Virus record (IMG/VR): IMGVR_UViG_2645727945_000025
Span: 1-43,691 of that record
DNA length: 43,691 bases
Direction: 5' to 3' (one strand)
DNA from: a virus
Taxonomy: Duplodnaviria > Heunggongvirae > Uroviricota > Caudoviricetes
The number at the start of each line of letters is the position of its first letter. Within the stretch, counting starts at the first letter, position 1. The position numbers were made by a program, and so were the translations under genes. This document shows positions 10,446 to 37,504 of the stretch, piece by piece. The notes below the pieces were generated by a model. That model had not been told where the DNA came from. It worked only from the letters and a program-made list of their open reading frames with translations, and did not search any database.

Positions 10446-10808
10446 TTATTTTGTCAGGGGGATATCTCCTTCAGTTCTGACCATTCGCCTTAATACTTTC
10501 CTTAAGTCGATGTAAAGTTGAAGGTCTCCATTTGCTGCGGCATCAGCCATTTTTTGCCTGACAAGCAGTAATGTTTCATACGGCTCAATAAGAATATCGT
10601 CATGAGTAATTAGGTGAAGCGTTGCCGCATCAACTATTCCTAGAGCTGCGCCAAGTATCAAAAATTCCCTGCTATTTTTGTCGCATGAGGAGATAAGCGT
10701 ATTTAGCGCATACCTAATATTCTTTATAGCTGTTGTTAATTCTGCAATTTCTTCTATGGCGTCTTCTCCAATGAGCTTTTCAAGCTCATATTTTTCTTCC
10801 TGACCCAT
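10446..10808 (-). CDS. Hypothetical AT-rich early gene (120 aa from Met24)
   Basis: Track ORF 10446-10877; GAGGT RBS before Met24; lower GC than neighbours. Confidence 0.45.
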   Translation of the reverse strand: MGQEEKYELEKLIGEDAIEEIAELTTAIKNIRYALNTLISSCDKNSREFLILGAALGIVDAATLHLITHDDILIEPYETLLLVRQKMADAAANGDLQLYIDLRKVLRRMVRTEGDIPLTK

Positions 10809-10810
10809 AA

Positions 10811-11083
10811 TTACCTCGCCGTCAGTTGTTTTGATTTCCGGTAGCCTGCCGCGTAAATGGCTACGTTTGGCAGGCAAATACTTCCACTGTATTCATCTGC
10901 CTTCTTGCAGCGAAGACTTCCGAGTGATGCTGCTTTATCTGCTCTGACGCAACCAGAGAGCTTTAGCGCAATCTTTCGCGCCAGTCGCTGTTCTTGCATT
11001 GCCTGTTCACGTTGAGCCTGTCTGCGTGCTCTGCGGTGATTTCTGGCGTTATCGTCAGCCAGATATGTAATGACTACTGTCAT
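10811..11083 (-). CDS. N: N-like transcription antiterminator (90 aa)
   Basis: Track ORF 10811-11155; start at Met25 with GGAGG RBS; arginine-rich N-terminus (NARNHRRARRQAQ) and C-terminus like P22 gp24; downstream of nutL. Confidence 0.7.
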   Translation of the reverse strand: MTVVITYLADDNARNHRRARRQAQREQAMQEQRLARKIALKLSGCVRADKAASLGSLRCKKADEYSGSICLPNVAIYAAGYRKSKQLTAR

Positions 11084-11123
11084 GTTGACCTCCGGGTAGG
11101 TGCACATCCTTGTGTGTCGATGA

Positions 11124-11243
11124 TTATTTGTTTTTGCGTTCCCACATCCAGTCATCTACTTCAGACCAGATAGTGAAACCGAAGCAGATGGCGAATGTGG
11201 TAACTAAACCACCGAGAATTGGGTTGGTCATGATGTCTAACAT
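11124..11243 (-). CDS. Possible 39-aa hydrophobic peptide between nutL and N
   Basis: ATG with GAGGAACAGAAA RBS; single predicted TM segment; below track threshold. Confidence 0.3.
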   Translation of the reverse strand: MLDIMTNPILGGLVTTFAICFGFTIWSEVDDWMWERKNK

Positions 11244-11414
11244 TTTCTGTTCCTCAGATGATTAGCTTTGGTGGTGTGGTAGGTGGGAGACCCATTTCGA
11301 CCCGCTTCGTCCGACTTCAATTCGGCAATAGTCCCGCAGGCCTCGCCGCTTTACGTGCGACATATTCCCGTCCATGAACCCTTCACCACACCCCAAAGCC
11401 AACTACTCTTTGGT

Positions 11415-11456
11415 TCCCGCATTTCGGCGGGACAATCCCATCAATGTTAAAGAGCC
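11415..11456 (-). promoter_or_regulatory. nutL (boxA-like plus boxB hairpin), approx.
   Basis: Minus-strand RNA contains GGCTCTTTA then UCCCGCCGAAAUGCGGGA, the same 18-nt boxB as nutR. Confidence 0.55.
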
Positions 11457-11503
11457 TGCCAATCTGTTCCGTTTGGCTACCAGCGTCCTGCTGATGGCTA
11501 AAG

Positions 11504-11588
11504 AATACTGTAGGTATTTTATTGTGTAAATACCCGAGGTATTTATTTTTGGTGAAATAATGATAAGCAAATGAATACAAAGGATATT
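11504..11588. promoter_or_regulatory. OL operators and PL promoter region (approx.)
   Basis: Three AATAC-N5-(G/A)TATT palindromes at about 11504-11518, 11529-11543, 11574-11588; minus-strand -35 TTTACA/-10 TATTCT overlap them. Confidence 0.5.
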
Positions 11589-11674
11589 TATTTTTTCGGT
11601 GTCTGCTTGTTCAGTGCTTTTTATGCGGGATATGTGAAGTGGATCCCGATAGCTATTGCTGCCGGGATTATGGG

Positions 11675-12043
11675 TTAGTCAGCGAAGGTTAAGACGAGAA
11701 TTACCTTAATGATGTCTGCTACAACAGACACGGCCATAGATAAACCAAAGACGATCCAAGCCATAGAGATGTCTTCACTACCATCGTATAGAGTTCCGTA
11801 ATCACTGGTGTAAGGCGTAAATGTCGCGCCTTGATACAATAGGTATAAGCTTGATCCATAGAGGATAAATGCAGATATCCCTTGTATTGCCATGATCACC
11901 AGAATCATGAAACGAGCTGATCTATGCGCCCAAGCCTGGCTTATTTTTTCTGATAGAGATTTCGCAATAAAAGCATGCGCTAAGCCGTAAATTGTTGAGA
12001 TTGCCAACATCCCCAAAAAGCTTGCTATAGCGGTTCCAACCAT
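11675..12043 (-). CDS. Predicted 3-TM membrane protein directly downstream of cI (rexB-like slot)
   Basis: Track ORF 11675-12064 abuts cI stop; ATG at 12043 with AAGGGG RBS or TTG at 12064; three hydrophobic helices. Confidence 0.55.
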   Translation of the reverse strand: MVGTAIASFLGMLAISTIYGLAHAFIAKSLSEKISQAWAHRSARFMILVIMAIQGISAFILYGSSLYLLYQGATFTPYTSDYGTLYDGSEDISMAWIVFGLSMAVSVVADIIKVILVLTFAD

Positions 12044-12060
12044 AATCGCCCCTTGCGTGA

Positions 12061-12777
12061 TCAAACCAGCCTTAGTTTTGTCTCAATTGCAACGCCTATA
12101 ATCTTGCAGTTTCCATTGATTGGCACGAGAGGCCATGCAGGATTAAGTCCCTTGAGGTATTTATTTCCGCCGTCGATTATCAGCTTCTTGAATGTTGCTT
12201 CGTTAGAGTCAGAAAGTTTTGCTATGACCAAGCTGCCGTTGATCGCCTCCCTTCCGGTATCGAAAAGAACGAATGTTCCCTCTGGAATGCTTAACCCAAC
12301 CGGTGCCGTCATTGAATCACCTTCCACTTTAAGCCAGAACGCATTACCTTGAATATGCGCGTCAGACTCAAGCCAAACATCTATGTCTTTAATGGTGTAT
12401 GGTTCGCATGCTTCACACCACGAGCCAGCCTGGATACTGCTTAACACCGGATACCTCTTTCCTGCTCTGTATTCCCCTGCATACCTTACGTTGGCATCGC
12501 TCTTAAGGCTTTCTGCCTGTTCTGCAACCTTGGCAGCAATTGACTGGCTAAAATCAGCAATTGAGACTTGCAACAATCGTGCAAAACCAGATGCAACCTC
12601 AACGTTTAGCGCGTTTCTGCCATTAAGATAATGCCCTACCGCTCCTTGGGTGATACCCAGTTCATCAGCGATTGAGTATTGGGTTATTCCCAATTCTTTC
12701 TTTTTTGACTCATACAAAGCCTTAAGACGCTTAGCGTCTTCGAGCTGTTCTGTCGTCAGTGATTTTTTATTTTCCAT
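12061..12777 (-). CDS. cI: CI repressor (HTH plus S24 LexA-like autocleavage domain), 238 aa
   Basis: Recalled similarity to lambda CI throughout (LTTEQLEDAKRLKALYE..., FWLKVEGDSMTAP..., C-terminal S24 domain). Confidence 0.9.
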   Translation of the reverse strand: MENKKSLTTEQLEDAKRLKALYESKKKELGITQYSIADELGITQGAVGHYLNGRNALNVEVASGFARLLQVSIADFSQSIAAKVAEQAESLKSDANVRYAGEYRAGKRYPVLSSIQAGSWCEACEPYTIKDIDVWLESDAHIQGNAFWLKVEGDSMTAPVGLSIPEGTFVLFDTGREAINGSLVIAKLSDSNEATFKKLIIDGGNKYLKGLNPAWPLVPINGNCKIIGVAIETKLRLV

Positions 12778-12877
12778 AGCTTAATTCTAATAGCTAAGGT
12801 ACTTAAACTAAAAATACCCTAAGTATTGATTGCTTTGAATACCTGTAGTATTCTTTGTTCATGGTTAATAACGGAGA
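12778..12877. promoter_or_regulatory. OR operators with divergent PRM and PR
   Basis: AATAC-N5-GTATT palindromes at 12813-12827 and 12837-12853; minus-strand TAGAAT 7 nt upstream of the cI ATG (leaderless-style PRM); plus-strand TTGATT...TATTCT before cro. Confidence 0.6.
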
Positions 12878-12883
12878 GTGCAT

Positions 12884-13078
12884 ATGATTCGAATGACACT
12901 TGCCGATTACGCCAAAATCCATGGACAGGCTAAAGCAGCCAGTGACTTTGGTGTAATCCAGTGCGCTATCAGCAAGGCCATTCTGGCAGGCCGTAACATC
13001 ATGGTTACGGTAAAGCCTGATGGCAGTGTGATTGGAGAGGAAGTTCGTCCTTTCCCAAGCAACAAGAAAAACAAATAG
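12884..13078 (+). CDS. cro: Cro repressor (64 aa)
   Basis: Recalled similarity to lambda Cro ([11 protein letters not shown]...FPSNKK); GGAGAG RBS. Confidence 0.85.
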
Positions 13079-13084
13079 TAACAC

Positions 13085-13128
13085 CGCTCTTTAACAGTCA
13101 TGGTCATCATTCCCGCCGAAATGCGGGA
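13085..13128 (+). promoter_or_regulatory. nutR (boxA CGCTCTTTA plus boxB hairpin)
   Basis: CGCTCTTTA at about 13085-13093; boxB TCCCGCCGAAATGCGGGA at about 13111-13128. Confidence 0.55.
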
Positions 13129-13186
13129 ATACAACGCGCATACGTTGATGCGCATAACTTCTTATTTGTTAAGGAAATACTTACAT

Positions 13187-13465
13187 ATGGAACTTACAAG
13201 TACTCGCAAGAAAGCGAATGCAATTACAAGCAACATCCTGAATCGAATTGCTGTACGTGGTCAGCGAAAGGTTGCTGATGCATTAGGGATCAATGAATCG
13301 CAAATTTCGCGATGGAAAGACAGCTTTATCCCAAAGATGGCCATGCTTCTGGCTGTACTGGAGTGGGGTGTTGAAGACGAGGAGTTGGCGGAACTGGCTA
13401 AGAAAGTAGCCAGAATGCTGACAAAAGAAAAAGCCCCGAAGAACGGCGAATTCTTCGAGGCCTGA
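13187..13465 (+). CDS. cII: CII transcriptional activator (92 aa)
   Basis: Recalled similarity to lambda CII (SQISRWK...MLLAVLEWGV); AAGGAAA RBS before the internal ATG of track ORF 13100-13465. Confidence 0.8.
   Translation: MELTSTRKKANAITSNILNRIAVRGQRKVADALGINESQISRWKDSFIPKMAMLLAVLEWGVEDEELAELAKKVARMLTKEKAPKNGEFFEA
13421..13460 (-). terminator. oop-like antisense terminator overlapping the cII 3' end (approx.)
   Basis: Minus strand: CC(T)CGAAGAA-TTCGCCG-TTCTTCG(G)GG hairpin followed by CTTTTTCTTTTG; CATAAT -10-like element about 65 nt upstream. Confidence 0.4.
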
Positions 13466-13499
13466 TGTAGAAAGACTGGATCAATCCACAGGAGTAATT

Positions 13500-14144
13500 A
13501 TGACATACGAAAATGACAAATTCCAGGTTCTGAAGAGCATGAAGGTGCCAGATGATTTTAAATCAAATGGCTTTGTTTATGTGCTTTCGAATGAGTGCAT
13601 GCCAGGAATTTATAAGATTGGGATGACTAAGCATTCACCAGAAGTTAGGGCTAAAGAAATTTCAGCCTCTACTGGCGTTCCTAAGCCATTTAAGGTGATA
13701 GCAGCCTTTCATTCAAATAATCCCGCATCAGATGAAAAACTCATTCATAAAGCCTTTGCAAAAGAGAGGCTTAGTGATAATCGAGAGTTTTTCAAGCTTG
13801 AAGATAATGATCTTTCTGAATCTCTAAATGAAATAAGGGCGCTGGTTGGCCCTGAAAGAAATGGCGAGACGGCAGAATACGCAATTTACGACTCATTCAT
13901 TTCTTTTCGCCATGAAAATGAGCTTGATCTTAATGAGGAGCTTATAGAGCAAGGTCTGGGTAGTGTAGTTGGTCATCTTCCTGCGGTGAAAAATTTCCTT
14001 ATTCGCGCCGGAATTGCTTACGCGAAGCAACTGATAAGCAAATATAACTCATCGATAGTTATTAATACAGATGGCAGTGTGGTGATGGTTAAGTCTCTTG
14101 AAGCCCAATGCTTTGATGCGGAGGTTGGAAATGAGCCTGGCTGA
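13500..14144 (+). CDS. T5orf172/GIY-YIG-superfamily domain protein (214 aa), moron between cII and O
   Basis: N-terminal motif GFVYVLSN...GIYKIGMT...R...F.V...E.LIHKAF...REFF; strong AGGAG RBS; AT-rich. Confidence 0.6.
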   Translation: MTYENDKFQVLKSMKVPDDFKSNGFVYVLSNECMPGIYKIGMTKHSPEVRAKEISASTGVPKPFKVIAAFHSNNPASDEKLIHKAFAKERLSDNREFFKLEDNDLSESLNEIRALVGPERNGETAEYAIYDSFISFRHENELDLNEELIEQGLGSVVGHLPAVKNFLIRAGIAYAKQLISKYNSSIVINTDGSVVMVKSLEAQCFDAEVGNEPG

Positions 14145-19858: not shown

Positions 19859-20182
19859 ATGAAGATGCCAGAAAAACATGACCTGTTAGCCGCCATTCTC
19901 GCGGCAAAGGAACAAGGCATCGGGGCAATCCTTGCGTTTGCAATGGCGTACCTTCGCGGCAGATATAATGGCGGTGCGTTTACAAAAACAGTAATCGACG
20001 CAACGATGTGCGCCATTATCGCCTGGTTCATTCGTGACCTTCTCGACTTCGCCGGATTAAGTAGCAATCTCGCTTATATAACGAGCGTGTTCATCGGCTA
20101 CATCGGTACTGACTCGATTGGTTCGCTTATCAAACGCTTCGCTGCTAAAAAAGCCGGAGTAGAAGATGGTGGAAATCAATAA
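19859..20182 (+). CDS. S: Holin, lambda S type (dual-start MKMPEK), 107 aa
   Basis: Recalled near-identity to lambda S. Confidence 0.95.
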
Positions 20183-20642
20183 TCAACGTAAGGCGTTCCT
20201 CGATATGCTGGCGTGGTCGGAGGGAACTGATAACGGACGTCAGAAAACCAGAAATCATGGTTATGACGTCATTGTAGGCGGAGAGCTATTCACTGATTAC
20301 TCCGATCACCCTCGCAAACTTGTCACGCTAAACCCAAAACTCAAATCAACAGCAGCCGGACGTTACCAGCTTCTTTCCCGTTGGTGGGATGCCTATCGCA
20401 AGCAGCTCGGACTGAAAGACTTCTCTCCGAAAAGCCAGGACGCTGTGGCACTGCAACAGATTAAAGAGCGTGGCGCTTTACCGATGATTGATCGCGGTGA
20501 TATCCGTCAGGCTATCGACCGTTGCAGCAATATCTGGGCTTCACTGCCTGGCGCTGGTTATGGTCAGTTCGAGCATAAGGCTGACAGCCTGATTGCAAAA
20601 TTCAAAGAAGCGGGTGGAACGGTCAGAGAGATTGAGGTATGA
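20166..20642 (+). CDS. R: Endolysin, lambda R lytic transglycosylase, 158 aa
   Basis: Recalled near-identity to lambda R. Confidence 0.95.
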
Positions 20643-21076
20643 GCAGAGTAACCGCGATTATCTCCGCTCTGGTTATCTGCATCATCGTCTGTCTGTCATG
20701 GGCTGTTAATCATTACCGTGATAACGCCATGACCTACAAAGAGCAGCGCGATAAAGCCACATCCATCATCGCTGATATGCAGAAGCGTCAACGTGATGTA
20801 GCTGAACTCGATGCCAGATACACAAAGGAGCTTGCTGATGCTAACGCGACTATCGAAAGTCTCCGTGCTGATGTTTCTGCTGGGCGTAAGCGCCTGCAGG
20901 TCGCCGCCACCTGTGCAAAGTCAACGACCGGAGCCAGCGGCATGGGCGATGGAGAAAGCCCAAGACTTACAGCAGATGCTGAACTCAATTATTACCGTCT
21001 CCGAAGTGGAATCGACAGGATAACCGCGCAGGTTAACTACCTGCAGGAATACATCAGGACGCAATGCCTTCGATGA
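20639..21076 (+). CDS. Rz: i-spanin Rz
   Basis: N-terminal TM segment and coiled-coil periplasmic domain similar to lambda Rz. Confidence 0.85.
20838..21023 (+). CDS. Rz1: o-spanin Rz1 lipoprotein embedded in the +1 frame of Rz
   Basis: Signal peptide [20 protein letters not shown] with lipobox, proline-rich mature part; nested in Rz as in lambda. Confidence 0.6.
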
Positions 21077-21523
21077 TAGCGATAATTTTACTCATCATCC
21101 TTCACATCTGGCTCTGTAGACAGGGTGGTGATCACTTCTGGAGTGAATCCAGATTAAACATCTCATTGCTGATGCTTGATATTGAGCATCTGGCGCGCGG
21201 TAAGGGGCTGCGTTGAGATAAGAGCCAGTTCATTACAAAGCCTATCTACTGGTGGGCTTGATAATGAAACCGGAATTTATTCTGGGTAACCAGTTACGGC
21301 AGTACCGCGAAACAACCCAAGCCAGTAAGTGGGGAAATAACACTGGCAGCCACTGAAAGATGAACCTCCTGCCTTATGGCAAAAAAGATTCTTTGTGGTG
21401 GCGGACTGATGGAAAGACATCGGTTATTGCAGAGGCCATTCAATGAGTGGTCTCGACAATGGCTTATACCCTACACGGGATAACTTAACTGATATCCCTT
21501 TTAACGGATAAACGGAGCCAACA

Positions 21524-21766
21524 ATGGCAGAGATTATTCCCATGACTGAAGAACAGAAATTCAAGTTAGAAATTTACCGACTGCTATCTAAGAACAATTC
21601 AGCGGCAGAGGAAGCGTTTGCATTCATTGGTGCTGACCAGTTGAAACTGGAATTGTTCAAGTTGCACTACAACGATGGCGGTGCAAATCCAGACTTCACA
21701 TCTCGCACTATCGAAGCGGTGCGTAAATCGAAGGAAGCGTTAGACCTGTTCACTACCGGAGGGTAA
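21524..21766 (+). CDS. Hypothetical protein (80 aa)
   Basis: Track ORF. Confidence 0.45.
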   Translation: MAEIIPMTEEQKFKLEIYRLLSKNNSAAEEAFAFIGADQLKLELFKLHYNDGGANPDFTSRTIEAVRKSKEALDLFTTGG

Positions 21767-21769
21767 GAG

Positions 21770-22057
21770 ATGACTGAACAAGAAATGCCGAGATACCAGT
21801 GCCACAAAAAAGTTCGCGCCCTGAAGATTGGCTCTATAGAACATAAGCCAAACCCAGATCAGTCTGGTAAGACTGGCTCTTCTAGTTATGGGGCAATTAT
21901 TCATCCGGATGATAAGAAATACGCAGCATTTGATGTTAGCGCGGAATATATCTGTAAGCACCGACCAATGTCTGGAGGCTATTACGTTGTCTATGAGGAT
22001 GGATATGAATCATATTCTCCTGCTGAGGTATTTGAGTCTGGATATTCAAAATTATAG
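21770..22057 (+). CDS. Hypothetical protein (95 aa)
   Basis: Track ORF. Confidence 0.45.
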   Translation: MTEQEMPRYQCHKKVRALKIGSIEHKPNPDQSGKTGSSSYGAIIHPDDKKYAAFDVSAEYICKHRPMSGGYYVVYEDGYESYSPAEVFESGYSKL

Positions 22058-22066
22058 GAATCCTCT

Positions 22067-22246
22067 ATGACAAGCGTCGTTGATCTTGGTAAGGAGAAGA
22101 AATTCCCAATTACTCAAGAGCTATACGAGCGGCTGGAAAGCGTCATTCATGATTACGATGGTGAAATCAGTTTATGCGAGGCGATTGGCACACTCGAATT
22201 GCTGAAGCAGTCACTGATTGAAGGCGCGAAAGAGTCCTCAGCCTGA
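22067..22246 (+). CDS. Possible small protein (59 aa)
   Basis: ATG-initiated ORF just below track threshold. Confidence 0.3.
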   Translation: MTSVVDLGKEKKFPITQELYERLESVIHDYDGEISLCEAIGTLELLKQSLIEGAKESSA

Positions 22247-22269
22247 AATGACAATTAAGTGAGATAAAT

Positions 22270-22758
22270 ATGGCAGCACCAAAGGGCAACCGATTTTGGG
22301 AGGCCCGCAGTAGTCATGGGAGAAACCCTAAATTCGAATCGCCTGAGGCGCTGTGGGCTGCTTGTTGTGAATACTTCGAGTGGGCTGATGATAACCCACT
22401 ATGGGAGGGTAAGGTATTTTCATATCAGGGAGAAATAATTAAGGCTAATGTCCCTAAGATGCGAGCCATGACTATTTCAGGATTGTGTACCTTCCTTGAT
22501 ATCACCAGGCAAACGTGGGGAACCTTCCGGTCAATGGAAGGTTTTTCTGACGTCACATCACGAGCGGAAGACATCATCTACGACCAGAAATTCTCTGGCG
22601 CAGCCGCTGACCTTCTCAACGCTAACATAATCGCCCGCGATTTGGGCCTCAAAGAGCAGTCGCAAGTTGAAGACGTGACACCTGATAAGGGAGATCGCGA
22701 TAAGCGACGCTCTCGTATCAAGGAGCTTTTCAACCGTGGAACTGGACGCGATTCTTGA
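22270..22758 (+). CDS. Terminase small subunit (P22 gp3-like, 162 aa)
   Basis: Size and position immediately upstream of, and overlapping, the large terminase. Confidence 0.75.
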
Positions 22759-24235
22759 TAACCTGAGCGACGAAGAGCAAATCGAATTGCTCGAGCTACT
22801 CGAAGAAGAAGAGAACTACCGGAACACACACCTGCTATATGAATTTACGCCATACAGCAAACAGCGTGAGTTCATCGACGCCGGGCATGACTATCCAGAG
22901 CGCTGTTTTATGGCTGGTAACCAGCTTGGTAAGTCATTTACTGGTGCTGCTGAAGTCGCGTTTCACCTTACAGGGCGTTATCCGGGCACAAAAGGCTATC
23001 CTGCTGATGGTAAATATGGCGGTGAGTGGAAAGGTAAGCGTTTCTATGAGCCTGTTGTCTTCTGGATTGGCGGCGAGACAAACGAGACTGTAACCAAAAC
23101 GACTCAACGCATCCTGTGCGGTCGTATCGAAGAGAATGATGAGCCTGGCTACGGTTCCATACCGAAAGAAGACATCATTAGCTGGAAGAAGTCTCCTTTC
23201 TTTCCGAACCTTGTTGATCATCTTCTGGTTAAGCATCACACGGCTGATGGCGTTGAAGATGGCATTTCAATCTGCTACTTCAAACCATACTCGCAAGGCC
23301 GCGCTCGCTGGCAGGGTGACACAATCCACGGCGTGTGGTTTGACGAAGAGCCACCATACAGCATTTATGGCGAAGGTCTTACCCGTACCAACAAATACGG
23401 GCAATTCTCAATTCTGACGTTTACCCCGCTGATGGGGATGTCTGACGTTGTTACCAAGTTCCTGAAGAATCCCAGCAAGTCGCAGAAAGTGGTCAACATG
23501 ACCATCTATGACGCTGAGCACTACACCGACGAGCAGAAAGAGCAAATCATCGCATCATATCCTGAGCATGAGAGAGAGGCGCGTGCTCGCGGTATTCCTA
23601 CGATGGGTAGCGGGCGAATCTTCCAGATACCGGAAGAGACGATTAAGTGTCAGCCGTTTGAGTGCCCTGATCACTTCTACGTAATTGGCGGGATGGATTT
23701 CGGATGGGATCACCCGCAGGCGCAGGTTCAGCTTTGGTGGGATAAGGACGCAGACACAATCTACGTTTCACGCGTGTGGAAGGCGAAAGAAAAAACAGCC
23801 GTTCAGGCATGGGGAGCTGTTAAATCATGGGCGCATAAAGTGCCAACAGCATGGCCTCATGACGGAAACCAGCATGAGAAGGGCGGCGGTGAGCAGCTCA
23901 AAGGGCAGTATGCAGATGCTGGTTTTATGATGTTGCAGGAGCATGCGACATGGCCTGATGGCGGTAATGCTGTTGAGCCTGGCATCACTGAATTGCGAGA
24001 CATGATGCTTGATGGTCGCTTCAAAGTATTCAACACCTGTGAGCCATTCTTTGAGGAGTTTCGCCTCTATCACCGTGATGAAAACGGGAAGATCGTCAAG
24101 CTTAACGATGACGTTCTCTCCGCCGTTCGCTATGCATACATGATGCGCCGCTTCGCCAAAATGATGCGCGACATCAAAAAACCAAAAGAGAAAAAGATAC
24201 CAGCCCCAATCAGGCCCATCGCACGGAGAACTTAA
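22736..24235 (+). CDS. Terminase large subunit (P22 gp2-like, 499 aa)
   Basis: Recalled near-identity to P22 gp2. Confidence 0.95.
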
Positions 24236-26401
24236 ATGGCCGACGAAAACAGACTCAATTCCATTCTGTGTAAGTTTGACGCAGACTGGATGGCGAGCGA
24301 TGAAGCCAGAACCGAGGCGACAAATGACCTGTATTTTAGCCGAGTGTCGCAATGGGATGACTGGCTATCAAACTACACCACCCTGCAATATCGCGGACAA
24401 TTCGATGTTGTTCGCCCGGTGGTCAGGAAACTGGTCGCAGAGATGCGCCGGAACCCTATCGACGTTCTCTTCCGACCCAAAGACGGCGCTAATCATGATG
24501 CAGCCGATGTGTTGATGGGGATGTATCGTACTGATATGCGCCATAACACGGCAAAGATTGCCGTTAACGTTGGCGTTCGTGAGCAGATAGAGTCCGGCGT
24601 TGGTGCATGGCGTCTGGTCACACAGTACGAAGACAACGACCCAACAAGCAACAATCAGGTAATCAGACGCCTGCCAATTCATGAAGCCTGCTCACACGTC
24701 ATATGGGACGCCAACAGCAAGCAGATGGATAAGAGCGACGCTAAGCACTGCACGGTGATTAACGCCTTGTCGCGCAATGGCTGGAAAGAGTTCGCAGAGG
24801 ATTACGGTATTGATCCGGACACCTTGCCATCTTTCCAGAATCCGAACGATACATGGCTGTTTCCGTGGGTATCGAATGATGTCGTCTACGTCGCTGAGTA
24901 TTACGAGGTCGAAGAGAAGAAAGAGAAGGTCTTCATCTACCGCGACCCGCTGACAGGTGAGCCGGTCAGCTATTACCAGCAGGATATCAAAGACGTCATC
25001 GACGACCTGGCTAATCGTGGATTCATTAAGGTAGCAGAGCGTAAGGTCAAGCGTCGGCGTGTGTATAAGTCGATCATCACCTGCACGCAGATACTGAAAG
25101 ACCGCGAGAAGATAGCCGGAGAGCATATTCCAATCGTTCCAGTGTATGGCGAATGGTCATTCGCTGGTGACAAGGAGTGCTACGAAGGAGTGGTAAGGCT
25201 GACGAAAGACGGTCAGCGCCTTCGTAACATGATCATGTCGTTCAACGCCGATATCGTTGCTCGTTCACCGAAGAAGAAACCGACCTTCTTCCCTGAGCAA
25301 GTCGAAGGCTACGAATACATGTACGGTGGAAATGATGACTATCAGTACTATCTGCAGAACAGGACCGATGAAAACGGTAACGACCTGCCGATTGGTCCAA
25401 TCTCCTACATGGAAAACCCTGAAGTGCCGCAAGCCAACGCTTACATGCTTGAGGCTGCCACCAACGCAGTGAAAGAGGTGGCTAGTCTTGGCGTGGATGC
25501 GCAGGCGGCAAATGGTCAGGTCGCTTTCGATACCGTCAATCAACTGAACATGCGGGCAGACCTTGAGACATACGTGTTTCAGGATAACCTGGCTACCGCA
25601 ATGCGACGTGATGGCGAGATTTATGCCTCAATGGTCAACGATATTTATGACGTTCCTCGTCATGTAACGCTGACACTTGAAGATGGAAGCGAGAAAGACG
25701 TTCAACTCTATGCGCAAGTTGTCGATTACCAGTCCGGCAATGTGGTCACACTCAACGACATTCGTGGTCGATATGAGTGCTATACAGACGTTGGGCCATC
25801 CTTCCAGAGTATGAAGGAACAGAACCGCGCAGAGATTCAGGAGTTGCTCACCAAGGTTCCGCAAGGTACTCCAGAGTTCCAGATGCTGATGCTGCAATAC
25901 TTCACGCTGCTTGACGGTAAAGGCGTCGAGATGATGCGAGAGTACGCGAACAAGCAACTGGTAATGATGGGGCTGAAGAAACCAGAAACACCTGAAGAGA
26001 TGGAGATGGTGCAACAGGCACAACAACAGCCGCAGCAGCCATCAGCAGAGCAAATTCAGGCGCAGGGTATCCTTCTGCAAGGTCAGGCTGAATTGCTCAA
26101 GGCAGAGAACCAACAGGCGCAGATTCAGGTTGAAGCTGCCAAGGTTGAAGCTCAAAACCAACTCAACGCCGCGAAGATTGCAGAAATCTTCAACAATATG
26201 GATCTCGACAAGCAGGCAGAACTGCGTGAGTACCTCAAGCTCGTAGGTCAATTCCAGCAACAGCGCAGCAAAGATGCTCGTGCTAACGCTGAGCTGCTTC
26301 TTAAAGATGCAGACCAGACTCATTCACAACGCATGGATTTCGCGAATCTTATGCGTCAAGTTCAAATCCCCTCCGGCGGAGTAGCCGAGACACCTCAATA
26401 A
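24236..26401 (+). CDS. Portal protein (P22 gp1-like, 721 aa)
   Basis: Recalled high similarity to P22 portal, including the Gln-rich C-terminal barrel. Confidence 0.95.
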
Positions 26402-26414
26402 GAGAGAGTTAATC

Positions 26415-27326
26415 ATGGACCAAACCACCGACATTCAGGCTTCTGAAGAATTAACCCTGCCCGGCAATCATGCAGCGGCATCTGCTGATGGCTTAGTTGT
26501 CGATAATGCCAACGACAACGCAGGTCAGGAAGAAGGCTTCGAGATTGTCCTGAAAGACGATGAGAAACCAAAACAAGACCCGGCAACTAATGCTGAATTT
26601 GCCCGTCGCCGCATCGAACGCAAACGCCAGCGTGAGCTTGAGCAGCAGATGGAAGCGGTTAAGCGTGGAGAGTTGCCGGAGCACCTGCGGGTGAACCCTG
26701 AGTTACCAAAACAACCAGACCCTAACGATTATCTTTCCGAAGATGCACTGGCTAAGTACGACTATGACCAGAGCCGCGCACTGGCTGCCTTCCAGCAGGC
26801 AAACAGTGAATGGCAGATCAAGGCTATGGACGCACGAAGCCAGGCTGTCGCCGAGCAGGGTCGCAAAACTCAGGAGTTCACCCAGCAATCAGCGCAATAC
26901 GTCGAGGCAGCCCGTAAGCACTACGACGCAGCGGAAAAGCTCAATATCCCTGACTATCAGGAGAAAGAGGATGCATTCATGCAACTGGTGCCGCCAGCAG
27001 TCGGTGCCGACATCATGCGCCTCTTCCCGGAGAAATCCGCTGCTCTCATGTATCACCTTGGTGCTAATCCTGAGAAAACACGCCAGTTGCTGGCGATGGA
27101 CGGGCAATCCGCGCTGATTGAACTCACTCGACTGTCAGAACGTTTAACTCTCAAGCCTCGAGCCAAGCCTGTTTCAGAAGCCCCGTTACCTGATGAACCC
27201 ATTCAGGGACACGCTGTTGCTGCAAATATCTCTGCGATTGAAAAGCAGATGGAAGCGGCAGCAAACAAAGGGGATGTAGAGACATACCGCAAGCTCAAGG
27301 CGCAACTGAATAAAGGAATTCGATAA
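26415..27326 (+). CDS. Scaffolding protein (P22 gp8-like, 303 aa)
   Basis: Recalled high similarity to P22 gp8. Confidence 0.9.
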
Positions 27327-28621
27327 TGGCATTAAATGAAGGTCAACTGGTCACGTATGCTCTGGATGAAATCATCGAAACCGTCCAGAACCTGACGCCA
27401 ATGGCGTCTAAAGTGACAAAATACACCCCTCCGGCAGAATCCATGCAGCGTTCAAGCAACACCGTGTGGATGCCTGTTGAGCAGGAAGCGCCAACCCAGA
27501 CTGGCTGGGATTTAACTGGCAACGCAACCGGGATTCTGGAACTCTCCGTGAAATGCAACATGGGCGATCCGGATAACGATTTCTTCGAGCTTCGTGCAGA
27601 TGACCTGCGTGATGAGCGTTCTTACCGTCGCCGCATCCAGGCATCCGCCAAAAAACTGGCGAATAACATTGAGTCAGCGATTGCCAAACAGGCAACTGAA
27701 ATGGGCTCGCTTGTTGTTCACGATACCCGCGCAATTGGTCCATCTACTGGCCTGTCTGGCTGGGATTTTGTGTCTGATGCAGAGCGCCTGATGTTCTCCC
27801 GTGAGCTAAACCGCGATATGGGCATCAGTTACTTCCTGAACCCTGACGATTACCGCAAAGCAGGCCGCAACCTGGTAGATGGTGACATCTTTGGGCGCGT
27901 TCCTGAAGAAGCGTATCGCAACGGTACTATTCAGCGTCAGATTGCTGGCTTTGATGAAATTCTTCGCTCACCGAAACTTCCGGCAGTTACCAAGTCAACC
28001 GCTACTGGTGTAACTGTTTCTGGTGCGCAGAAGTTTAAGCCGCAGGCATACACCCTTGATACCGATGGTAACAAAGAGAACGTCGACAACCGTGTTGCAA
28101 CGGTGACCGTATCCTCCACCACCGGATTTAAGCGCGGCGACAAAATCAGCTTCACTGGTGTGAAATTCCTGTCTCAGATGGCGAAGAACGTGCTGACTGA
28201 TGACGCGACTTTCTCAATCACCCGTGTGATCGATGGTACTCACATCGAAATCACGCCGAAGCCGATTGCGCTTGATGACGCTTCACTGACAAAAGAAGAG
28301 AAGGCTTACGCTAACGTAAATACTTCTCTTGCTAATAACACTCCGGTAAACGTTCTGAACGTGGCAACAACCACCGCTAACGTGTTCTGGGCTGATGACT
28401 CAATCCGTCTGCTTTCTCAGCCGATCCCGGTAACCCATGAACTGTTTGCTGGCATGAAAACGTCTTCCTTCAGCATTCCAGGTATTGGTGTTAACGGCAT
28501 CTTCGCAACGCAGGGTGATATCAACACTCTGTCTGGTAAGTGCCGTATTGCTGTGTGGTATTCAGCATGTGCTGTACGACCAGAGGCAATTGGTGTTGGT
28601 CTGCCTAACCAGACCGCGTGA
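27326..28621 (+). CDS. Major coat protein (P22 gp5-like, 431 aa)
   Basis: Recalled high similarity to P22 coat protein. Confidence 0.95.
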
Positions 28622-28665
28622 TAACCAGAGGGAGCTTCGGCTCCCTTTTCTATCTGGAGACAAGC

Positions 28666-28933
<268 letters not shown>

Positions 28934-28956
<23 letters not shown>

Positions 28957-29434
28957 TTTAGTTCTTGCGGCATTACGTAAGCTCGGTGTGGCATCAAATG
29001 CCACGTTAACCGATGTCGAACCGCAGTCTATGGAAGACGGCGTCAACGACCTTGAAATGATGATGGCTGAATGGCTTGGCGGTGATGCGTCACCTGGTAT
29101 CAACGTTGGCTACATTTTTGCTGATGCAGATGTTGCTCCGGATCCGGGCGATGAGCACGGTTTATCAAATAACGCTATCAATGCCGTCATTTTCAACCTT
29201 GCCTGCCGAATTGCTCCAGATTATGCGCTGGAAGCGTCTGCAAAACTTATAACCACTGCCAGATACGGGAAAGAGCGACTCGTCAAACTGTCTGCAATGG
29301 ACAGGGCAAAAGCAGCTAAATGTAAGTCCGGTTATCCAAACCGTATGCCTGTTGGTAGTGGTAACCAGTTTGCGAAGTGGAATGGTTGGAATTACTTCCA
29401 CCGAAAGGAATCTTGCGATAACGGGAGCGAATAA
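28934..29434 (+). CDS. Tail adaptor / head completion protein (P22 gp4-like, 166 aa)
   Basis: Recalled similarity to P22 gp4; real start is internal Met44 of track ORF 28805-29434. Confidence 0.85.
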
Positions 29435-30852
29435 TGCCTATTCAGCAACTTCCGCTTATGAAAGGTGTCGGCAAAGACTTCCGAAACGCCGATTATATCG
29501 ACTATCTGCCAGTGAATATGTTGGCTACACCCAAAGAAATCCTCAACAGTAGCGGATATCTTCGCTCATTCCCGGGCATTGCCAAACGTTCTGATGTGAA
29601 CGGTGTATCTCGAGGCGTCGAGTACAACATGGCGCAGAGTGCTGTATATCGCGTGTGTGGGGGCAAGTTGTATAAGGGCGAAAGTGAAGTCGGCGATGTT
29701 GCCGGAAGTGGTCGTGTATCATTGGCTCATGGTAGGACATCACAGGCGGTTGGCGTTAACGGGCAACTGGTCGAGTATCGCTATGATGGCACGGTTAAAA
29801 CCGTCTCAAACTGGCCTACAGACAGCGGATTCACGCAGTATGAGTTAGGTTCGGTCCGTGACATTACGCGTTTACGTGGGCGTTATGCGTGGTCAAAAGA
29901 CGGTACTGATTCATGGTTTATCACTGACCTTGAAGACGAATCGCATCCTGACCGTTACAGCGCACAATATCGCGCAGAATCGCAGCCGGACGGTATCCTC
30001 GGCATCGGAACATGGCGAGACTTCATCGTCTGCTTTGGTTCATCGACTATTGAATATTTCTCCCTGACTGGCGCAACCACCGTTGGTGCTGCTTTGTATG
30101 TCGCGCAGCCATCGCTGATGGTGCAAAAAGGCATCGCCGGGACTTACTGCAAAACGCCGTTTGCTGATTCCTATGCGTTTATCAGCAATCCGGCAACAGG
30201 TGCGCCGTCTGTATACATCATCGGCTCCGGTCAGGTGTCACCAATCGCCAGCGCGAGCATTGAGAAAATACTACGCTCCTACACTGCTGATGAACTGGCT
30301 GATGGCGTGATGGAATCGTTGCGCTTTGATGCGCATGAGTTGCTGATTATCCATCTTCCGCGCCACGTACTCGTGTACGACGCATCTTCAAGCGCCAATG
30401 GTCCGCAATGGTGTGTACTGAAAACAGGCCTGTATGACGATGTGTACCGCGCTATCGACTTCATTTACGAAGGCAATCAAATAACGTGCGGCGATAAGCT
30501 GGAGTCCGTGACCGGGAAATTGCAATTCGACATCAGCAGCCAGTACGACAAGCAACAGGAACACCTGCTGTTTACTCCGTTGTTCAAAGCGGATAACGCC
30601 AGAGTGTTCGACCTTGAGGTTGAATCGTCAACTGGCGTTGCGCAGTATGCTGACCGCCTGTTCCTCTCTGCAACCACTGACGGCATAAATTACGGGCGTG
30701 AGCAGATGATTGAGCAGAATGAACCGTTCGTTTACGACAAACGCGTTTTGTGGAAGCGAGTAGGGCGCATCAGGAAAAATGTTGGCTTCAAATTGCGCGT
30801 TATCACGAAGTCTCCTGTCACTCTGTCTGGCGCTCAGATAAGGATTGAGTAA
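29434..30852 (+). CDS. Tail hub protein (P22 gp10-like, 472 aa)
   Basis: Size and synteny; recalled similarity to P22 gp10. Confidence 0.9.
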
Positions 30853-31700
30853 TGGCGGATTCGAATCTCAATGTGCCGGTAATCATTCAGGCCACACGGC
30901 TCGACACATCAGTCCTTCCACGCAATATCTTCTCGCAGTCGTATCTGCTTTACGTTATCGCACAGGGCACTGATGTTGGTAATGTGGCGAACAAGGCCAA
31001 CGAGGCCGGACAGGGCGCTTATGACGCACAAGTCAGGAACGATGAGCAGGATGTGATTCTCGCTGACCATGAGCAGCGAATTTCTGCTGCGGAAGCAACG
31101 CTTGTTAATCATGAGGAGCGAATCAGCCAGGCAGAATCAACTCTTCAGGAACATGAAACGCGAATCGCTCAGAATGAAAGCGATATTGCGTCTCTTGATA
31201 CCAGAGTTCAGTCGCTGGAGTCGCAGGTTTCAGACCATGAAACGCGCATCGATGCTCTGGAGTATGCCACTACTCGCAAGAAGTCGGAGGTTGTTTACTC
31301 TGGCGTATCTGTAACCATCCCAACAGCGCCGACCAACCTTGTTAGCCTGCTGAAAACGCTCACGCCGTCATCCGGCACGTTGGCACCATTCTTCGATACC
31401 GTTAACAACAAGATGGTTGTGTTCAACGAGAACAAAACCTTGTTCTTCAAGCTGTCGATCGTCGGGACGTGGCCCAGCGGAACCGCTAACAGATCAATGC
31501 AGCTAACCTTTTCCGGCTCTGTTCCTGACACACTGGTTAGCAGTCGTAATGCGGCGACAACAACCGACAACATTCTGTTAGCTACGTTCTTCAGCGTGGA
31601 TAAAGACGGCTTTCTTGCCACAAATGGCAGTACGTTAACCATTCAGTCAAATGGTGCGGCGTTTACTGCCACAACCATCAAAATCATTGCGGAGCAGTGA
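30852..31700 (+). CDS. Tail needle (gp26-like) with extended C-terminal domain, 282 aa
   Basis: N-terminal gp26-like segment and heptad coiled coil; C-terminal ~140 aa extra domain. Confidence 0.8.
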
Positions 31701-32179
31701 TGGAAATAAAGCTCATCGATAATCCGGTGAAGCTTGCAGAATTCCTCAACAACCCGGCAAACACGGGAAATATCGTAGACAGTGGAGATAAATACTACAT
31801 CAAGCCTGATGCGGTATATCTCGGCATCTACGAAGGATTAGTGCTGGCTGGAGTTCATGAAGTGCGTAACTTCTGGCATAGCGTTGTTGAATGCCATGCG
31901 GTGTATGACCCCGGATTCCGTGGAGAATATGCACTGCAAGGGCATCGATTATTCTGCAAATGGCTTCTCGAAAACTCACCATTCCTTAACAGCATCACCA
32001 TGGTTCCTGACACCACCAAATACGGACGGGCAATTATCCGTTTGCTTGGCGCTACCCGTGTTGGTCACCTTGATGATGCTTATACCAGCAATGGAAAGCC
32101 TGTAGGCATCACGATTTATCAGTTACCGCGCTCAAAATACGAGGAGCTAAAGAATGTTAATTTTCCAGATTGCCAATAA
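31697..32179 (+). CDS. P22 gp14-like virion accessory protein
   Basis: Synteny and size. Confidence 0.75.
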
Positions 32180-32807
32180 GCACCTCAGCAAAGCTGTGTA
32201 CTGCAAAGGCGGCAGTGATAGCGGAGCAAAAGAGCAGGCCCGCGCAACTGAAAAGGGCATCGAACTGCAGCGTGAAATGTGGCAGACGAACATGCAAAAC
32301 CTTGCACCGTTCACGCCACTCGCTCAGCAGTACGTATCACAGCTGCAGAATCTTTCCTCTCTTCAGGGGCAAGGTCAGGCGCTTAACCAGTATTACAACT
32401 CTCAGCAGTATAAAGACCTTGCAGGGCAGGCGCGTTACCAGAGTCTGGCAGCAGCAGAGGCAACGGGTGGATTAGGCTCTACAGCAACAGGAAACCAGTT
32501 AGCAGCAATCGCACCTACACTCGGTCAAAACTGGCTGTCAGGTCAGATGAACAACTACAACAATCTGGCAAATATCGGCCTTGGTGCTCTTACAGGTCAG
32601 GCAAACGCCGGACAGAACTACGCTAACAACGTCAGCCAACTGTATCAACAGCAGGCGGCAGCATCTGCGGCTAATGCGAATAAACCATCAGGATTTCAGA
32701 GCGCCTTGGGTGGAGCGGCAGCAGGTGCAGCTGCAGGTACTGCAATCATGCCTGGTTGGGGTACAGCAATTGGTGCTGGCGTCGGTCTTCTTGGTTCACT
32801 TTTTTAA
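32154..32807 (+). CDS. Ejection protein (P22 gp7-like)
   Basis: Gln/Asn/Ala-rich low-complexity protein with Gly-rich C-terminus, in synteny. Confidence 0.8.
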   Translation: MLIFQIANKHLSKAVYCKGGSDSGAKEQARATEKGIELQREMWQTNMQNLAPFTPLAQQYVSQLQNLSSLQGQGQALNQYYNSQQYKDLAGQARYQSLAAAEATGGLGSTATGNQLAAIAPTLGQNWLSGQMNNYNNLANIGLGALTGQANAGQNYANNVSQLYQQQAAASAANANKPSGFQSALGGAAAGAAAGTAIMPGWGTAIGAGVGLLGSLF

Positions 32808-32819
32808 TGGAGGTGTCTC

Positions 32820-34232
32820 TTGGCTACATGGCAACAGGCTGGTAATTCAGGCGCGCTTCTTGCCGGGTTAGGCGGCATGAACTCCAACGCTCCAAGAGCA
32901 AGTGATGCAGACGCCACGCTTGCATACATTAGACAGAATAACGAGATGGAGCGTTCAGGACGTAATAACGTTGGCTTGCAGGCTTTGCAGGGCATTTCAT
33001 CTGTCATGGATATGTATAAGCAGATGGATCAGCAGAAGCGACAGCAAGAGTTTCAGCAGGCTTATGCTGATGCATATACATCTGGTGACCGCGATGCAAT
33101 GCGAAAACTGGCATCACAGTATCCTGAGCAGTTTGACGCTGTAAGAAACGGCATGAAATTTGTCGATGAAGACCAGCGTTCCACTGTCGGTACACTGGCA
33201 GCAAGTGCCAGACTCGCAGCTTCATCTCCAGAAGCCATGATGTCATGGTTGCAGAACAACTCATCTGAGCTTACTCGTGCCGGAGTAGACCCTCTGGATG
33301 TGGCGAAAATGTATCAGCAAAATCCACAAGGTTTCACAGAGTTTGTTGATCACCTTGGGATGGCTGCTCTTGGTCCTATTGATTACTTCAATGTTCAGGA
33401 CAAGATGGCAGGTCGTGAGATTGACCGAGGCAGGCTGGCAGAGACAATCCGCAGCAATCAGGCTGGTGAAGCACTTCAGGCGAGAGGGCAAAACCTTTCC
33501 TATCAGTCAGCAATGACTGGGCACAATATCGCAGCACAACGCTTGGCTCTGGATCAGCAAGAGTTCGGGTTTAAGATGCAGCAAGCGCAGGAAAAGGCTC
33601 AGCAGTTGATTAGCGAAGCACCTAAGCTGTCAGTAAACATGGAAAAAGGCATCGAGACGGCTGTAAACAATGCCACAGCATCATCAAACTCAGCCAATTC
33701 TATGAGTGCGCTTGCTCAACAGTTCAGAGCAGAAAAACCAACGACAGGTTTGTTCGGTAACGCACAGAACATGTTCGCAAAACTTACCGGAAGTGATACG
33801 ACATTGCGTGATTTGCGCATTCGCCAAAATGCCCTTGTTAACAGTCAGGTTCTTAAATTCCTACCTCCCGGCCCAGCAACGGATAAAGACGTTGAGATCG
33901 TTCGACAGGGTGCGCCAACTGACATGGATAACCCTGAGACGGTCGCAAGATGGCTTGATGCAATGGCAAACCTTGAGCGACGAAACGCGCAGTTTAATGA
34001 GTTTAAAGCCGAGTGGATGAGCGCGAATGGCAACCCTGGACAATCGCGTAATGGCGGTCAGATATTGGGGTTGGATGTTAAAAAAGGTGAATCATTGGGG
34101 AGTGCCGTTAAGCGGTATATGTCAATGAATACTGACGCAGCTCCAGCACAAGATTCGACACCTTCAGGAGAACCACGGAATCAGGTTGGATCATATACCT
34201 CAAAATCAGGCATTCAATTTACGGTGGAATGA
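32820..34232 (+). CDS. Ejection protein (P22 gp20-like, TTG start)
   Basis: Synteny, size (470 aa), GGAGG RBS. Confidence 0.8.
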   Translation: MATWQQAGNSGALLAGLGGMNSNAPRASDADATLAYIRQNNEMERSGRNNVGLQALQGISSVMDMYKQMDQQKRQQEFQQAYADAYTSGDRDAMRKLASQYPEQFDAVRNGMKFVDEDQRSTVGTLAASARLAASSPEAMMSWLQNNSSELTRAGVDPLDVAKMYQQNPQGFTEFVDHLGMAALGPIDYFNVQDKMAGREIDRGRLAETIRSNQAGEALQARGQNLSYQSAMTGHNIAAQRLALDQQEFGFKMQQAQEKAQQLISEAPKLSVNMEKGIETAVNNATASSNSANSMSALAQQFRAEKPTTGLFGNAQNMFAKLTGSDTTLRDLRIRQNALVNSQVLKFLPPGPATDKDVEIVRQGAPTDMDNPETVARWLDAMANLERRNAQFNEFKAEWMSANGNPGQSRNGGQILGLDVKKGESLGSAVKRYMSMNTDAAPAQDSTPSGEPRNQVGSYTSKSGIQFTVE

Positions 34233-36235: not shown

Positions 36236-36243
36236 AAAGTTGG

Positions 36244-36588
36244 TTAGCGGTTGATGGTTGCTTTTTTCGGGTCATACCATCTCGGCCATTCTTTCAGGAA
36301 TGGGAATGAGTCAGGTGCGTGGTTCTTTTTGTACGATTTAAGCAGCCTTAACCGCTCAACCGCACACTCATAAACCTCTTGTTGCCCTGTAGTCATCTCG
36401 GTCCATGAAAGGTGATCCATTGATAAGACAACGTTTTCAGCTTCTTTTATGAGGGCGTTTTTATTTCTCACCGCAGCAGCATGGCTGACAGAGCAATCCT
36501 GCCATATTCTTAAAAGCCAAATAGCCAAGCAGATGAAAAAAATGGTAGATAGCGATATATACACACCAACCTCCTTAGTTTTGAGCAT
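36244..36588 (-). CDS. Single-pass membrane protein (114 aa), moron in the sieA slot
   Basis: Track ORF; N-terminal hydrophobic helix VGVYISLSTIFFICLAIWLL; AT-rich; opposite strand to the virion operon. Confidence 0.5.
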   Translation of the reverse strand: MLKTKEVGVYISLSTIFFICLAIWLLRIWQDCSVSHAAAVRNKNALIKEAENVVLSMDHLSWTEMTTGQQEVYECAVERLRLLKSYKKNHAPDSFPFLKEWPRWYDPKKATINR

Positions 36589-36617
36589 GACGAAATTAAC
36601 CAGCCATCAGGCTGGTA

Positions 36618-36800
36618 TTAGTCACATTCTATTTCTTTTGTCGAGGTCCATACATAAGGGTCTGAGCAAACAACCTCACCATTTATCATGACGTCATAGC
36701 CCATTAGATATGAGTTACCACCAACAATCTGAGCGGCTATGACGCTAATGCTGGCGGCGCAGGCTGCACCAAAAACGAAACCAATTAATATATTTTTCAT
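36618..36800 (-). CDS. Small secreted/periplasmic miniprotein (60 aa) with signal-peptide-like N-terminus
   Basis: Track ORF; [17 protein letters not shown] then a Cys-containing mature part. Confidence 0.4.
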
Positions 36801-36831
36801 TTTAATTCCAAATAGTTATAGGATGAAAGTT

Positions 36832-37017
36832 ATGACCATAGAAGAACGTCTGAACAACATTGAGTTGAACCAAACCCTGCTTGACCAGCGACTTTCAGAT
36901 CTTGAGCTTAAAGATCTAGATGCGCAAATATCAGAAGCAGAAGCCAAGCTCTCCAGCCTAAACCACCGCAAGAAGCAAATCCGCAACAGAATTACTCAGG
37001 GACGCGGAAGCTGTTGA
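36832..37017 (+). CDS. Possible coiled-coil miniprotein (61 aa), convergent with the mnt-operon ORF
   Basis: Internal ATG of track ORF 36739-37017 with AGGA RBS; low-complexity heptad-like sequence. Confidence 0.3.
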   Translation: MTIEERLNNIELNQTLLDQRLSDLELKDLDAQISEAEAKLSSLNHRKKQIRNRITQGRGSC

Positions 37018-37434: not shown

Positions 37435-37487
37435 ACCACCTCCATAGCATTTTGGTGATATTACTATTGCATCACTGCGATCACAAT

Positions 37488-37504
37488 GGTATAACGGTTA
37501 TACC
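37488..37504. promoter_or_regulatory. 17-bp perfect palindrome GGTATAACGGTTATACC in the mnt-arc intergenic region (candidate operator)
   Basis: Read directly; located between the divergent RHH repressor genes. Confidence 0.45.

Follow-up and report, generated by a model that had tools for sequence, protein, structure and literature searches.

The interval between the repressor gene cI and the antiterminator gene N is a documented hotspot of lysogen-expressed accessory genes, which include rexAB, stk of 933W, hex of 434 and bstA of BTP1 (PMC3564112, PMC8585504). In the stretch of viral DNA analysed here (43,691 nucleotides, hereafter the window), this slot is occupied by one open reading frame for a small hydrophobic protein, which raises the question of what a lone membrane protein does behind a phage repressor. 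The original prediction had proposed a RexB-like candidate for exclusion or abortive infection and had described the genes of the slot as typically serving defence or exclusion. The hotspot as such is well documented, yet the restriction to defence is too narrow, since Hex of 434, encoded on the PRM transcript in the repressor slot, also stabilises lysogeny, namely by preventing RecA-stimulated cleavage of the repressor (PMC3564112). Likewise, the occurrence of one gene without a partner, which had been regarded as unusual, is shared with hex, stk and bstA, all of them single genes.

The gene and its immunity module

The coding sequence extends over 11675..12043 on the minus strand and comprises 122 codons and a stop; a longer version, 11675..12064, would result from opening at a TTG codon. 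As foreseen, it ends ahead of the left operators, its stop codon at 11675..11677 preceding OL2, OL1 and a PL-like promoter. By sequence, the open reading frame is the gene hkaS from the immunity module of phage HK620, where the same gene sits in the same slot between cI and OL. The product shares 95.9% protein identity with HkaS of HK620 (AAK28867.1), corresponding to five amino-acid differences, and residues 1-122 of its 122 residues match PHROG phrog_6534 over the full length (E 1.7e-78), which is the only significant PHROG match and bears the label 'unknown function'. In the HK620 record (AF335538, 2001), hkaS is already annotated with the product 'unknown'. Hence, hkaS is not new as an observation, having been in GenBank since 2001, and no paper naming it by gene name or accession was found in the literature searched.

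Over the surrounding region, 11400..12900, the window agrees at 98.9-99.1% identity with the immunity regions of HK620, HK630, mEpX2, HK140, HF4s, HZ41, phi296/phi367, 611R6 and two Stx2c phages. When the window is compared by local blastn with the loci of HK620, HK630, phi296, Stx2c, 611R6 and HK140, an immunity module is delimited at 11381..13505, which comprises nutL, PL/OL, hkaS, cI, OR, cro, nutR and cII, is 97.6-98.8% identical among the hkaS-carrying phages compared (98.8% with respect to HK620) and constitutes the only DNA common to all of these carriers. Its flanks are mosaic, and so, with respect to HK620, are the window's early-left and replication genes. The layout mirrors the lambda order N - PL/OL - rexB - rexA - cI - OR - cro, so that hkaS indeed takes the place held in lambda by rexA and rexB. 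The N gene is located left of OL/PL at 10811..11083, while the cI gene covers 12061..12777 on the minus strand. The repressor combines HTH_3 and Peptidase_S24 domains, is annotated in AF335538 and is 99.6% identical to HK620 cI, which that record likens to the repressors of 434 and L. The operators OR3, OR2 and OR1 (12788..12853), transferred from the HK620 record and scored with a position weight matrix (PWM), are followed by cro (12878..13078) and by cII, both on the plus strand.

Start codon and transcription

Translation of hkaS might open at either of two codons, both of which had been pointed out by the original prediction and both of which are present. The cI gene ends with CTG GTT TGA, and an in-frame TTG of hkaS (12062..12064, minus strand) overlaps the cI stop within GTTTGA. 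The ATG at 12043 is separated by 17 nt from the cI stop, no other gene lying between cI and hkaS, and is preceded at a distance of 5 nt by the Shine-Dalgarno sequence AAGGGG (12049..12054, minus strand), as read from the sequence. In the homologous loci from Salmonella (L003) and of Hafnia type (L009) an in-frame stop separates the cI stop from the ATG, by which the TTG start is rejected; the ATG, together with an SD-like purine run 5-7 nt upstream, is kept in all five loci compared. Therefore, the ATG at 12043 is taken as the start of hkaS, and the TTG is probably unused. The spacer between cI and hkaS measures 17-20 nt and is maintained in four diverged lineages. Three rare database variants (P0005, P0008 and P0009) open at the TTG overlapping the cI stop and are out of frame for about 30 residues until they rejoin, whereby helix 1 is lost; decay of the gene or errors of sequencing may account for them.

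Upstream of cI, a -10-like TAGAAT is present at 12789..12784 on the minus strand, 6 nt before the cI ATG. From this sequence we infer a promoter PRM, absent from the HK620 annotation, which would yield a near-leaderless, lambda-like cI mRNA. A consensus scan detected no promoter-like site between cI and hkaS and no terminator-like site anywhere on the scanned minus strand, PL being its sole promoter-like match. Co-transcription of hkaS with cI from PRM is thus strongly suggested by the arrangement of the DNA, and hkaS would accordingly be made constitutively in lysogens.

The region between hkaS and PL

RNA folding predicts a stem-loop (AUCCCGG...CCGGGAU) without a U-tract at 11643..11668 on the minus strand, 7 nt after the hkaS stop. 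Since a hairpin folds in the same place behind hkaS in four diverged lineages, with differing sequences, the stem-loop may mark the 3' end of the cI-hkaS mRNA or stabilise this transcript. The annotators of HK620 placed 'tIMM; termination of cI transcript' after hkaS, followed by OL3 to OL1, pL, nutL and N. The element corresponding to 'tIMM' (11563..11593, minus strand) holds an operator-like 17-mer, AAATATCCTTTGTATTC, at 11589..11573, which is strongly conserved across four loci with diverged flanks and ranks sixth among all matches in the window to the PWM built from five accepted operators. The OL3 annotated in HK620 (11550..11566) does not rank within the top 20 operator matches of the window. 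To judge from the sequence, the annotated 'tIMM' may instead be the third left operator, or both. OL2 (11528..11544) and OL1 (11503..11519) are identified by the HK620 annotation and the PWM, and PL (TTTACA, 17 nt spacer, TATTCT; 11530..11502, minus strand) by the HK620 annotation and the promoter scan.

A strongly hydrophobic open reading frame of 35 codons at 11571..11678 on the plus strand, antisense to the 3' end of hkaS, is probably no gene: its ATG lies inside the operator-like element, and it is shortened to 10-12 codons in the Salmonella (L003) and Hafnia-type (L009) loci. A search of both strands of 10700..13300 against Rfam returned nothing meaningful.

Predicted anatomy of HkaS

The three strongly hydrophobic helices noticed beforehand are borne out by hydropathy and modelling alike. 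Kyte-Doolittle means over 19 residues peak three times (1.7, 2.15 and 2.28), and an AlphaFold2 model computed from a six-sequence alignment (pLDDT 90.7, pTM 0.77) comprises helices at residues 2-29, 31-38, 41-74 and 89-121 as well as a short beta-hairpin at 78-86. HkaS is accordingly predicted to be an inner-membrane protein with three long transmembrane helices. Loop 1 contains four Lys/Arg residues; loop 2 contains none and carries four Asp/Glu residues instead, from which the positive-inside rule predicts an N-out (periplasm)/C-in (cytoplasm) topology. The topology check called for by the original prediction was thereby carried out by hydropathy, loop charge and model, and it yielded three transmembrane segments.

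In this topology the predicted cytoplasmic loop, KSLSEKISQAWAHRSAR, consists of 17 residues and is basic and amphipathic, and only about 19 residues of HkaS in all would face the cytoplasm. The predicted periplasmic loop is longer (22 residues), acidic, rich in tyrosine and glycine, conserved, and forms the beta-hairpin. Conservation is unevenly distributed along the protein. Helix 1 is the least conserved part (29% of positions invariant across four lineages), and what is conserved of it forms one small-residue face. The cytoplasmic loop (KIxQxWxHxxARF) ranks among the best-conserved segments with 58% invariant positions, and both the hairpin motif YLLYQGATF...Y.S.YG..Y.G and the C-terminal DIxKxILVLTFAD are well conserved across four lineages. 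Moreover, the invariant pair Asp110/Lys113 is located inside helix 3 and is thus predicted to be intramembrane; Gln54 is invariant as well. A likeness of the cytoplasmic loop to the amphipathic helix of lambda cIII, an inhibitor of FtsH, was seen by eye and discarded, as 690 of 2000 shuffled sequences scored as well.

Comparison with known proteins

Apart from its own family, HkaS resembles nothing in the collections searched. In agreement with the absence of an enzymatic motif noted at the outset, neither Pfam nor NCBIfam contains a family for HkaS (the best Pfam match, TssN at E 0.048, is below the cutoff), and the defence models of PADLOC-DB v2 include no family matching at E<=1. T4 Imm, SieB and holin families (Pfam/PHROGs, E<=1) did not match, nor did a profile search of PDB sequences. 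The structure search that had been suggested was run with Foldseek against BFVD and the PDB and retrieved nothing at E<0.3 for the HkaS model. Similarity to a housekeeping membrane protein family, which would have spoken against a phage-related role, was not encountered: an exhaustive profile search through 1.84 billion representatives (50% level) returned the HkaS family alone, in the form of one full-length representative. Its two other matches, a 44-aa fragment and a repetitive 5949-aa protein regarded as spurious, were set aside. A word-index search retrieved 11 HkaS clusters at 90% identity, all of them close relatives.

Direct comparison with the proteins closest in position or anatomy was likewise negative. 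The probability assigned by hhalign was 0.3% for RexB, which also lacks a Pfam match to HkaS at E<=1, 0.25% for SieA of P22 and 0.07% for gp38 of Sf6; the Smith-Waterman score with 434 sHex was reached by 1515 of 2000 shuffles. With lambda RexB (PF15968), HkaS shares the slot between cI and OL, by position, and the character of a small polytopic inner-membrane protein. RexB, however, has four transmembrane helices, so that HkaS differs in having three as well as in its length (122 versus 144 aa) and in the absence of a RexA partner. 'RexB-like' is therefore unsupported, and so is 'channel-like', the other attribute originally given to HkaS. Homologues of RexA, RexB, SieA and HkaP are absent from the window (RexA tblastn E>4), which leaves hkaS as the sole candidate membrane exclusion gene identified there, and no partner gene is conserved with hkaS in the shared module at 11381..13505.

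Evolution and distribution of hkaS

Homologues of hkaS occur in Salmonella P22-like prophages (L003-L006, 60% identity), in Hafnia-type metagenome contigs (L008-L010, 81%) and in a further contig (L011, 54%). The diverged homologues are always located directly 3' of a cI gene of 238-240 codons and ahead of N. All encode 122 aa and align without gaps down to 54% identity, and an alignment of nine sequences has 47 invariant positions. Relative to the Hafnia-type homologues, hkaS displays a dN/dS of 0.15-0.20 at a dS of about 0.65, by which it is shown, at the level of sequence, to be a genuine protein-coding gene under purifying selection. In comparison with one and the same Hafnia-type locus, hkaS yields dS 0.63, dN 0.10 and dN/dS 0.16, and cI yields dS 0.73, dN 0.022 and dN/dS 0.03; the similar dS of the two genes indicates a common history. 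In keeping with this, the identities of the two proteins to those of the window drop in parallel, from 99.6% (cI) and 95.9% (HkaS) in HK620 to 95.8% and 81.1% in the Hafnia-type locus L009, 86.1% and 59.8% in the Salmonella locus L003, and 83.9% and 54.1% in L011. A foreign, 'moron'-like composition is ruled out as well, the GC and GC3 contents of hkaS (42.3% and 42.3%) matching those of cI (45.3% and 43.5%). Taken together, parallel divergence, gapless homologues and cI-like GC content point to hkaS as an old resident of the module rather than a recent insertion, one that has diverged in step with one cI lineage in E. coli, Hafnia and Salmonella alike.

The linkage of the two genes is complete. 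Among 5426 complete E. coli genomes, hkaS and its cI are each present in 146 (2.7%, from many sources), and hkaS is joined to its cI at 147 of 147 places, never apart from it. Correspondingly, 16 records of the phage collection contain this cI at >=99% identity and 16 contain hkaS, with linkage in 16/16. The carriers span P22-like, lambda-like and Stx-type phages, and hkaS is found only in phage immunity modules. Complete linkage, along with an open reading frame that is intact at saturated dS, argues for retention under selection. At 90% clustering, HkaS comprises 525 distinct sequences versus 310 for the twice-longer cI. The common E. coli alleles differ by conservative changes in the transmembrane helices only (L10F, I51M, S93T/M94V); their loops are invariant, and arms-race variation in the periplasmic loop is absent among them.

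Relatives of this cI outside the HK620-type lineage are accompanied by other cargo, namely the Hex-like gp38 in Sf6. In Enterobacter phage BHUENT3 (L017, 3170..3886), a repressor 65% identical overall to the cI of the window, and most alike in the C-terminal domain, precedes a slot with two open reading frames unrelated to hkaS: one encodes a zinc-ribbon-like protein of 127 aa, the other a coiled-coil protein of 109 aa whose C-terminal part contains a transmembrane segment and which has a weak XhlA-like match.

Possible functions of HkaS

The gene hkaS is a reasonable candidate for a part in the defence of lysogens against other phages and a sound subject for experiment. The reading that we tentatively rank first, at well below even probability, is that HkaS may be a stand-alone inner-membrane superinfection-exclusion protein. 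The gene would be read with cI from PRM, its product would be present constitutively in the lysogen and would act alone in the inner membrane, where the periplasmic hairpin and the helix bundle would block the incoming genome-delivery conduit as it engages or crosses the cytoplasmic membrane. Heteroimmune phages would hence still adsorb, their DNA would stay outside and the cell would survive. SieA of P22, Imm of T4 and gp15 of HK97 act at that genome-entry step, and entry-blocking exclusion is typically brought about by stand-alone, small polytopic membrane proteins of prophages. This ranking follows from the lack of a partner, the nearly total embedding in the membrane, the conserved periplasmic hairpin, an anatomy like that of SieA and the small cytoplasmic portion, which would leave little surface for perceiving an intracellular cue of infection and thus favours action at the envelope. 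Precedents of anti-phage genes in the slot (PMC3564112, PMC8585504) favour it, too, as do the operon-like arrangement with cI and the retention of an intact hkaS. SieA of P22 is an inner-membrane protein with three predicted transmembrane domains and works without any other phage protein (PMC10461980). HkaS is similarly prophage-encoded and without a partner, and three transmembrane segments are predicted for it, the anatomical likeness thus holding by prediction only; SieA differs in its length (162-164 aa), its location beside gene 16 in the immI region, its own promoter and in not lying behind a repressor. Stk of 933W and BstA of BTP1 resemble HkaS as products of a single gene behind the repressor, are lysogen-expressed and protect against other phages (PMC3564112, PMC8585504), but Stk, a kinase, and BstA, found at phage DNA replication sites, are cytoplasmic, act by abortive infection and are not homologous to the membrane protein HkaS.

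Several observations weaken exclusion at entry. HkaS has no similarity in sequence or fold to known exclusion or defence proteins; its strict vertical co-inheritance with one cI and its cI-like GC content are unlike the swappable cargo of defence hotspots, and the invariant loops of the E. coli alleles lack the signature of an arms race. The strict co-inheritance could reflect a functional coupling to the repressor. Furthermore, the virion types of the carriers differ (P22-like, lambda-like and Stx-like), so that the target of exclusion is not guessable.

The presence of hkaS in the rexB slot could alternatively be taken to mean that HkaS idles in the membrane in the manner of RexB or of a holin and, on a phage cue, oligomerises, collapses the membrane potential and brings about the death or arrest of the cell before phage progeny arise. 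A small polytopic protein in which the invariant Asp110/Lys113 and Gln54 could line a conduction path would be suited to such abortive infection. Class I holins such as lambda S105 have about 100-120 aa and three transmembrane helices in N-out/C-in orientation, which HkaS resembles in size and in its predicted topology; HkaS nevertheless lacks their charged C-terminal tail, matches no holin family and resides in an immunity operon instead of a lysis cassette. In addition, the negligible hhalign probability against RexB, three helices in place of four, the lack of a RexA-like sensor in the window and of a conserved partner in the module, the few cytoplasmic residues for sensing, and the want of an evident self-immunity element that would spare the phage's own lytic growth render abortive infection unlikely. 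About as unlikely, and equally grounded in the slot, is a modulation of the lysogeny switch, in which HkaS would take a Hex-like role and tune spontaneous or SOS induction, for example through RecA-stimulated cleavage of cI, through the stability of cI or cII at the membrane or by linking the state of the envelope to induction. Hex, the single gene product encoded directly after the 434 repressor, offers the precedent: it reduces spontaneous induction about 30-fold and is specific to the 434 and P22 repressors (PMC3564112). That hkaS is never parted from its cI and co-diverges with it at similar dS and GC content, and that the cytoplasmic loop is so highly invariant, would fit such a role. Yet HkaS has no similarity to Hex or Sf6 gp38, which likewise is the product of a lone gene directly behind the repressor, and work on the active fragment of Hex treated it as a non-membrane protein acting on repressor cleavage in vitro, whereas HkaS is almost wholly transmembrane. 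It would thus lie nearly entirely in or beyond the membrane, away from the cytoplasmic, DNA-bound cI and RecA, and the linkage may merely reflect a 17-nt spacer without room for recombination.

A more far-reaching version of such a coupling, rated as improbable, views HkaS as an integral third component of the immunity system, that is, a membrane-anchored partner of cI which would couple the state of the envelope or an incoming infection to repressor stability and prophage induction; this would explain why hkaS has never been parted from its cI in E. coli, Hafnia and Salmonella while all other flanks are mosaic. Lysogenic conversion unrelated to phages carries a similarly small probability. 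HkaS would then alter the envelope physiology of the host, for instance stress tolerance or the activity of a transporter or protease, to the benefit of the lysogen, in accordance with the likely constitutive co-expression with cI, the purifying selection, the occurrence in many E. coli genomes of diverse sources and the absence of any defence-family signal; the confinement of hkaS to phage immunity modules and the failure to find a related housekeeping membrane family among the 1.84 billion representatives argue against it. Finally, the lack of a known domain, the very small family and the few N-terminally frameshifted database variants might suggest a non-functional open reading frame persisting merely by its place between cI and OL. 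This is highly improbable, since the low dN/dS at a dS of about 0.65 effectively refutes it, and the conservation of length, start codon and SD sequence down to 54% identity, the 47 invariant positions and the confident model speak against it as well.

The HK620-type immunity module is carried by P22-like, lambda-like and Shiga-toxin phages and is found in 2.7% of the complete E. coli genomes; its second gene, hkaS, is therefore presumably expressed in many lysogens, pathogens included. If superinfection exclusion by an entry block holds true, HkaS would establish a new sequence family of exclusion proteins that act alone in the inner membrane, and this would matter for phage therapy and for the way Stx phages spread; if induction is tuned instead, a membrane input would be added to the lambda-type genetic switch. 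HkaS is small, the Asp110/Lys113 pair and the periplasmic hairpin are obvious targets for mutation, and the genetic systems concerned are well developed.

Further features of the window

Several features around the module deserve mention in their own right. The place of the small hkaW gene of HK620, between cII and the O-like replication gene, is taken in the window by an open reading frame at 13500..14144 on the plus strand. Its product of 214 aa contains a T5orf172/MUG113 domain (Pfam E 2e-15 and 4e-16) and matches the PADLOC candidate defence models PDC-S57 (6e-29) and PD-Lambda-1. On the other side, HK620 and HK630 lack a segment of some 290 bp, at 11094..11381, which in the window lies between the start of N (11083) and nutL. 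Within it, an open reading frame at 11124..11243 (minus strand) is preceded by the ribosome-binding site GAGGA and encodes a single-TM protein of 39 aa that matches phrog_7482 (E 8e-25, PHROG label 'unknown function'); transcription from PL would reach this gene first. The late region of the window, 20000..43691, matches P22-like phages of the Lederbergvirus type.
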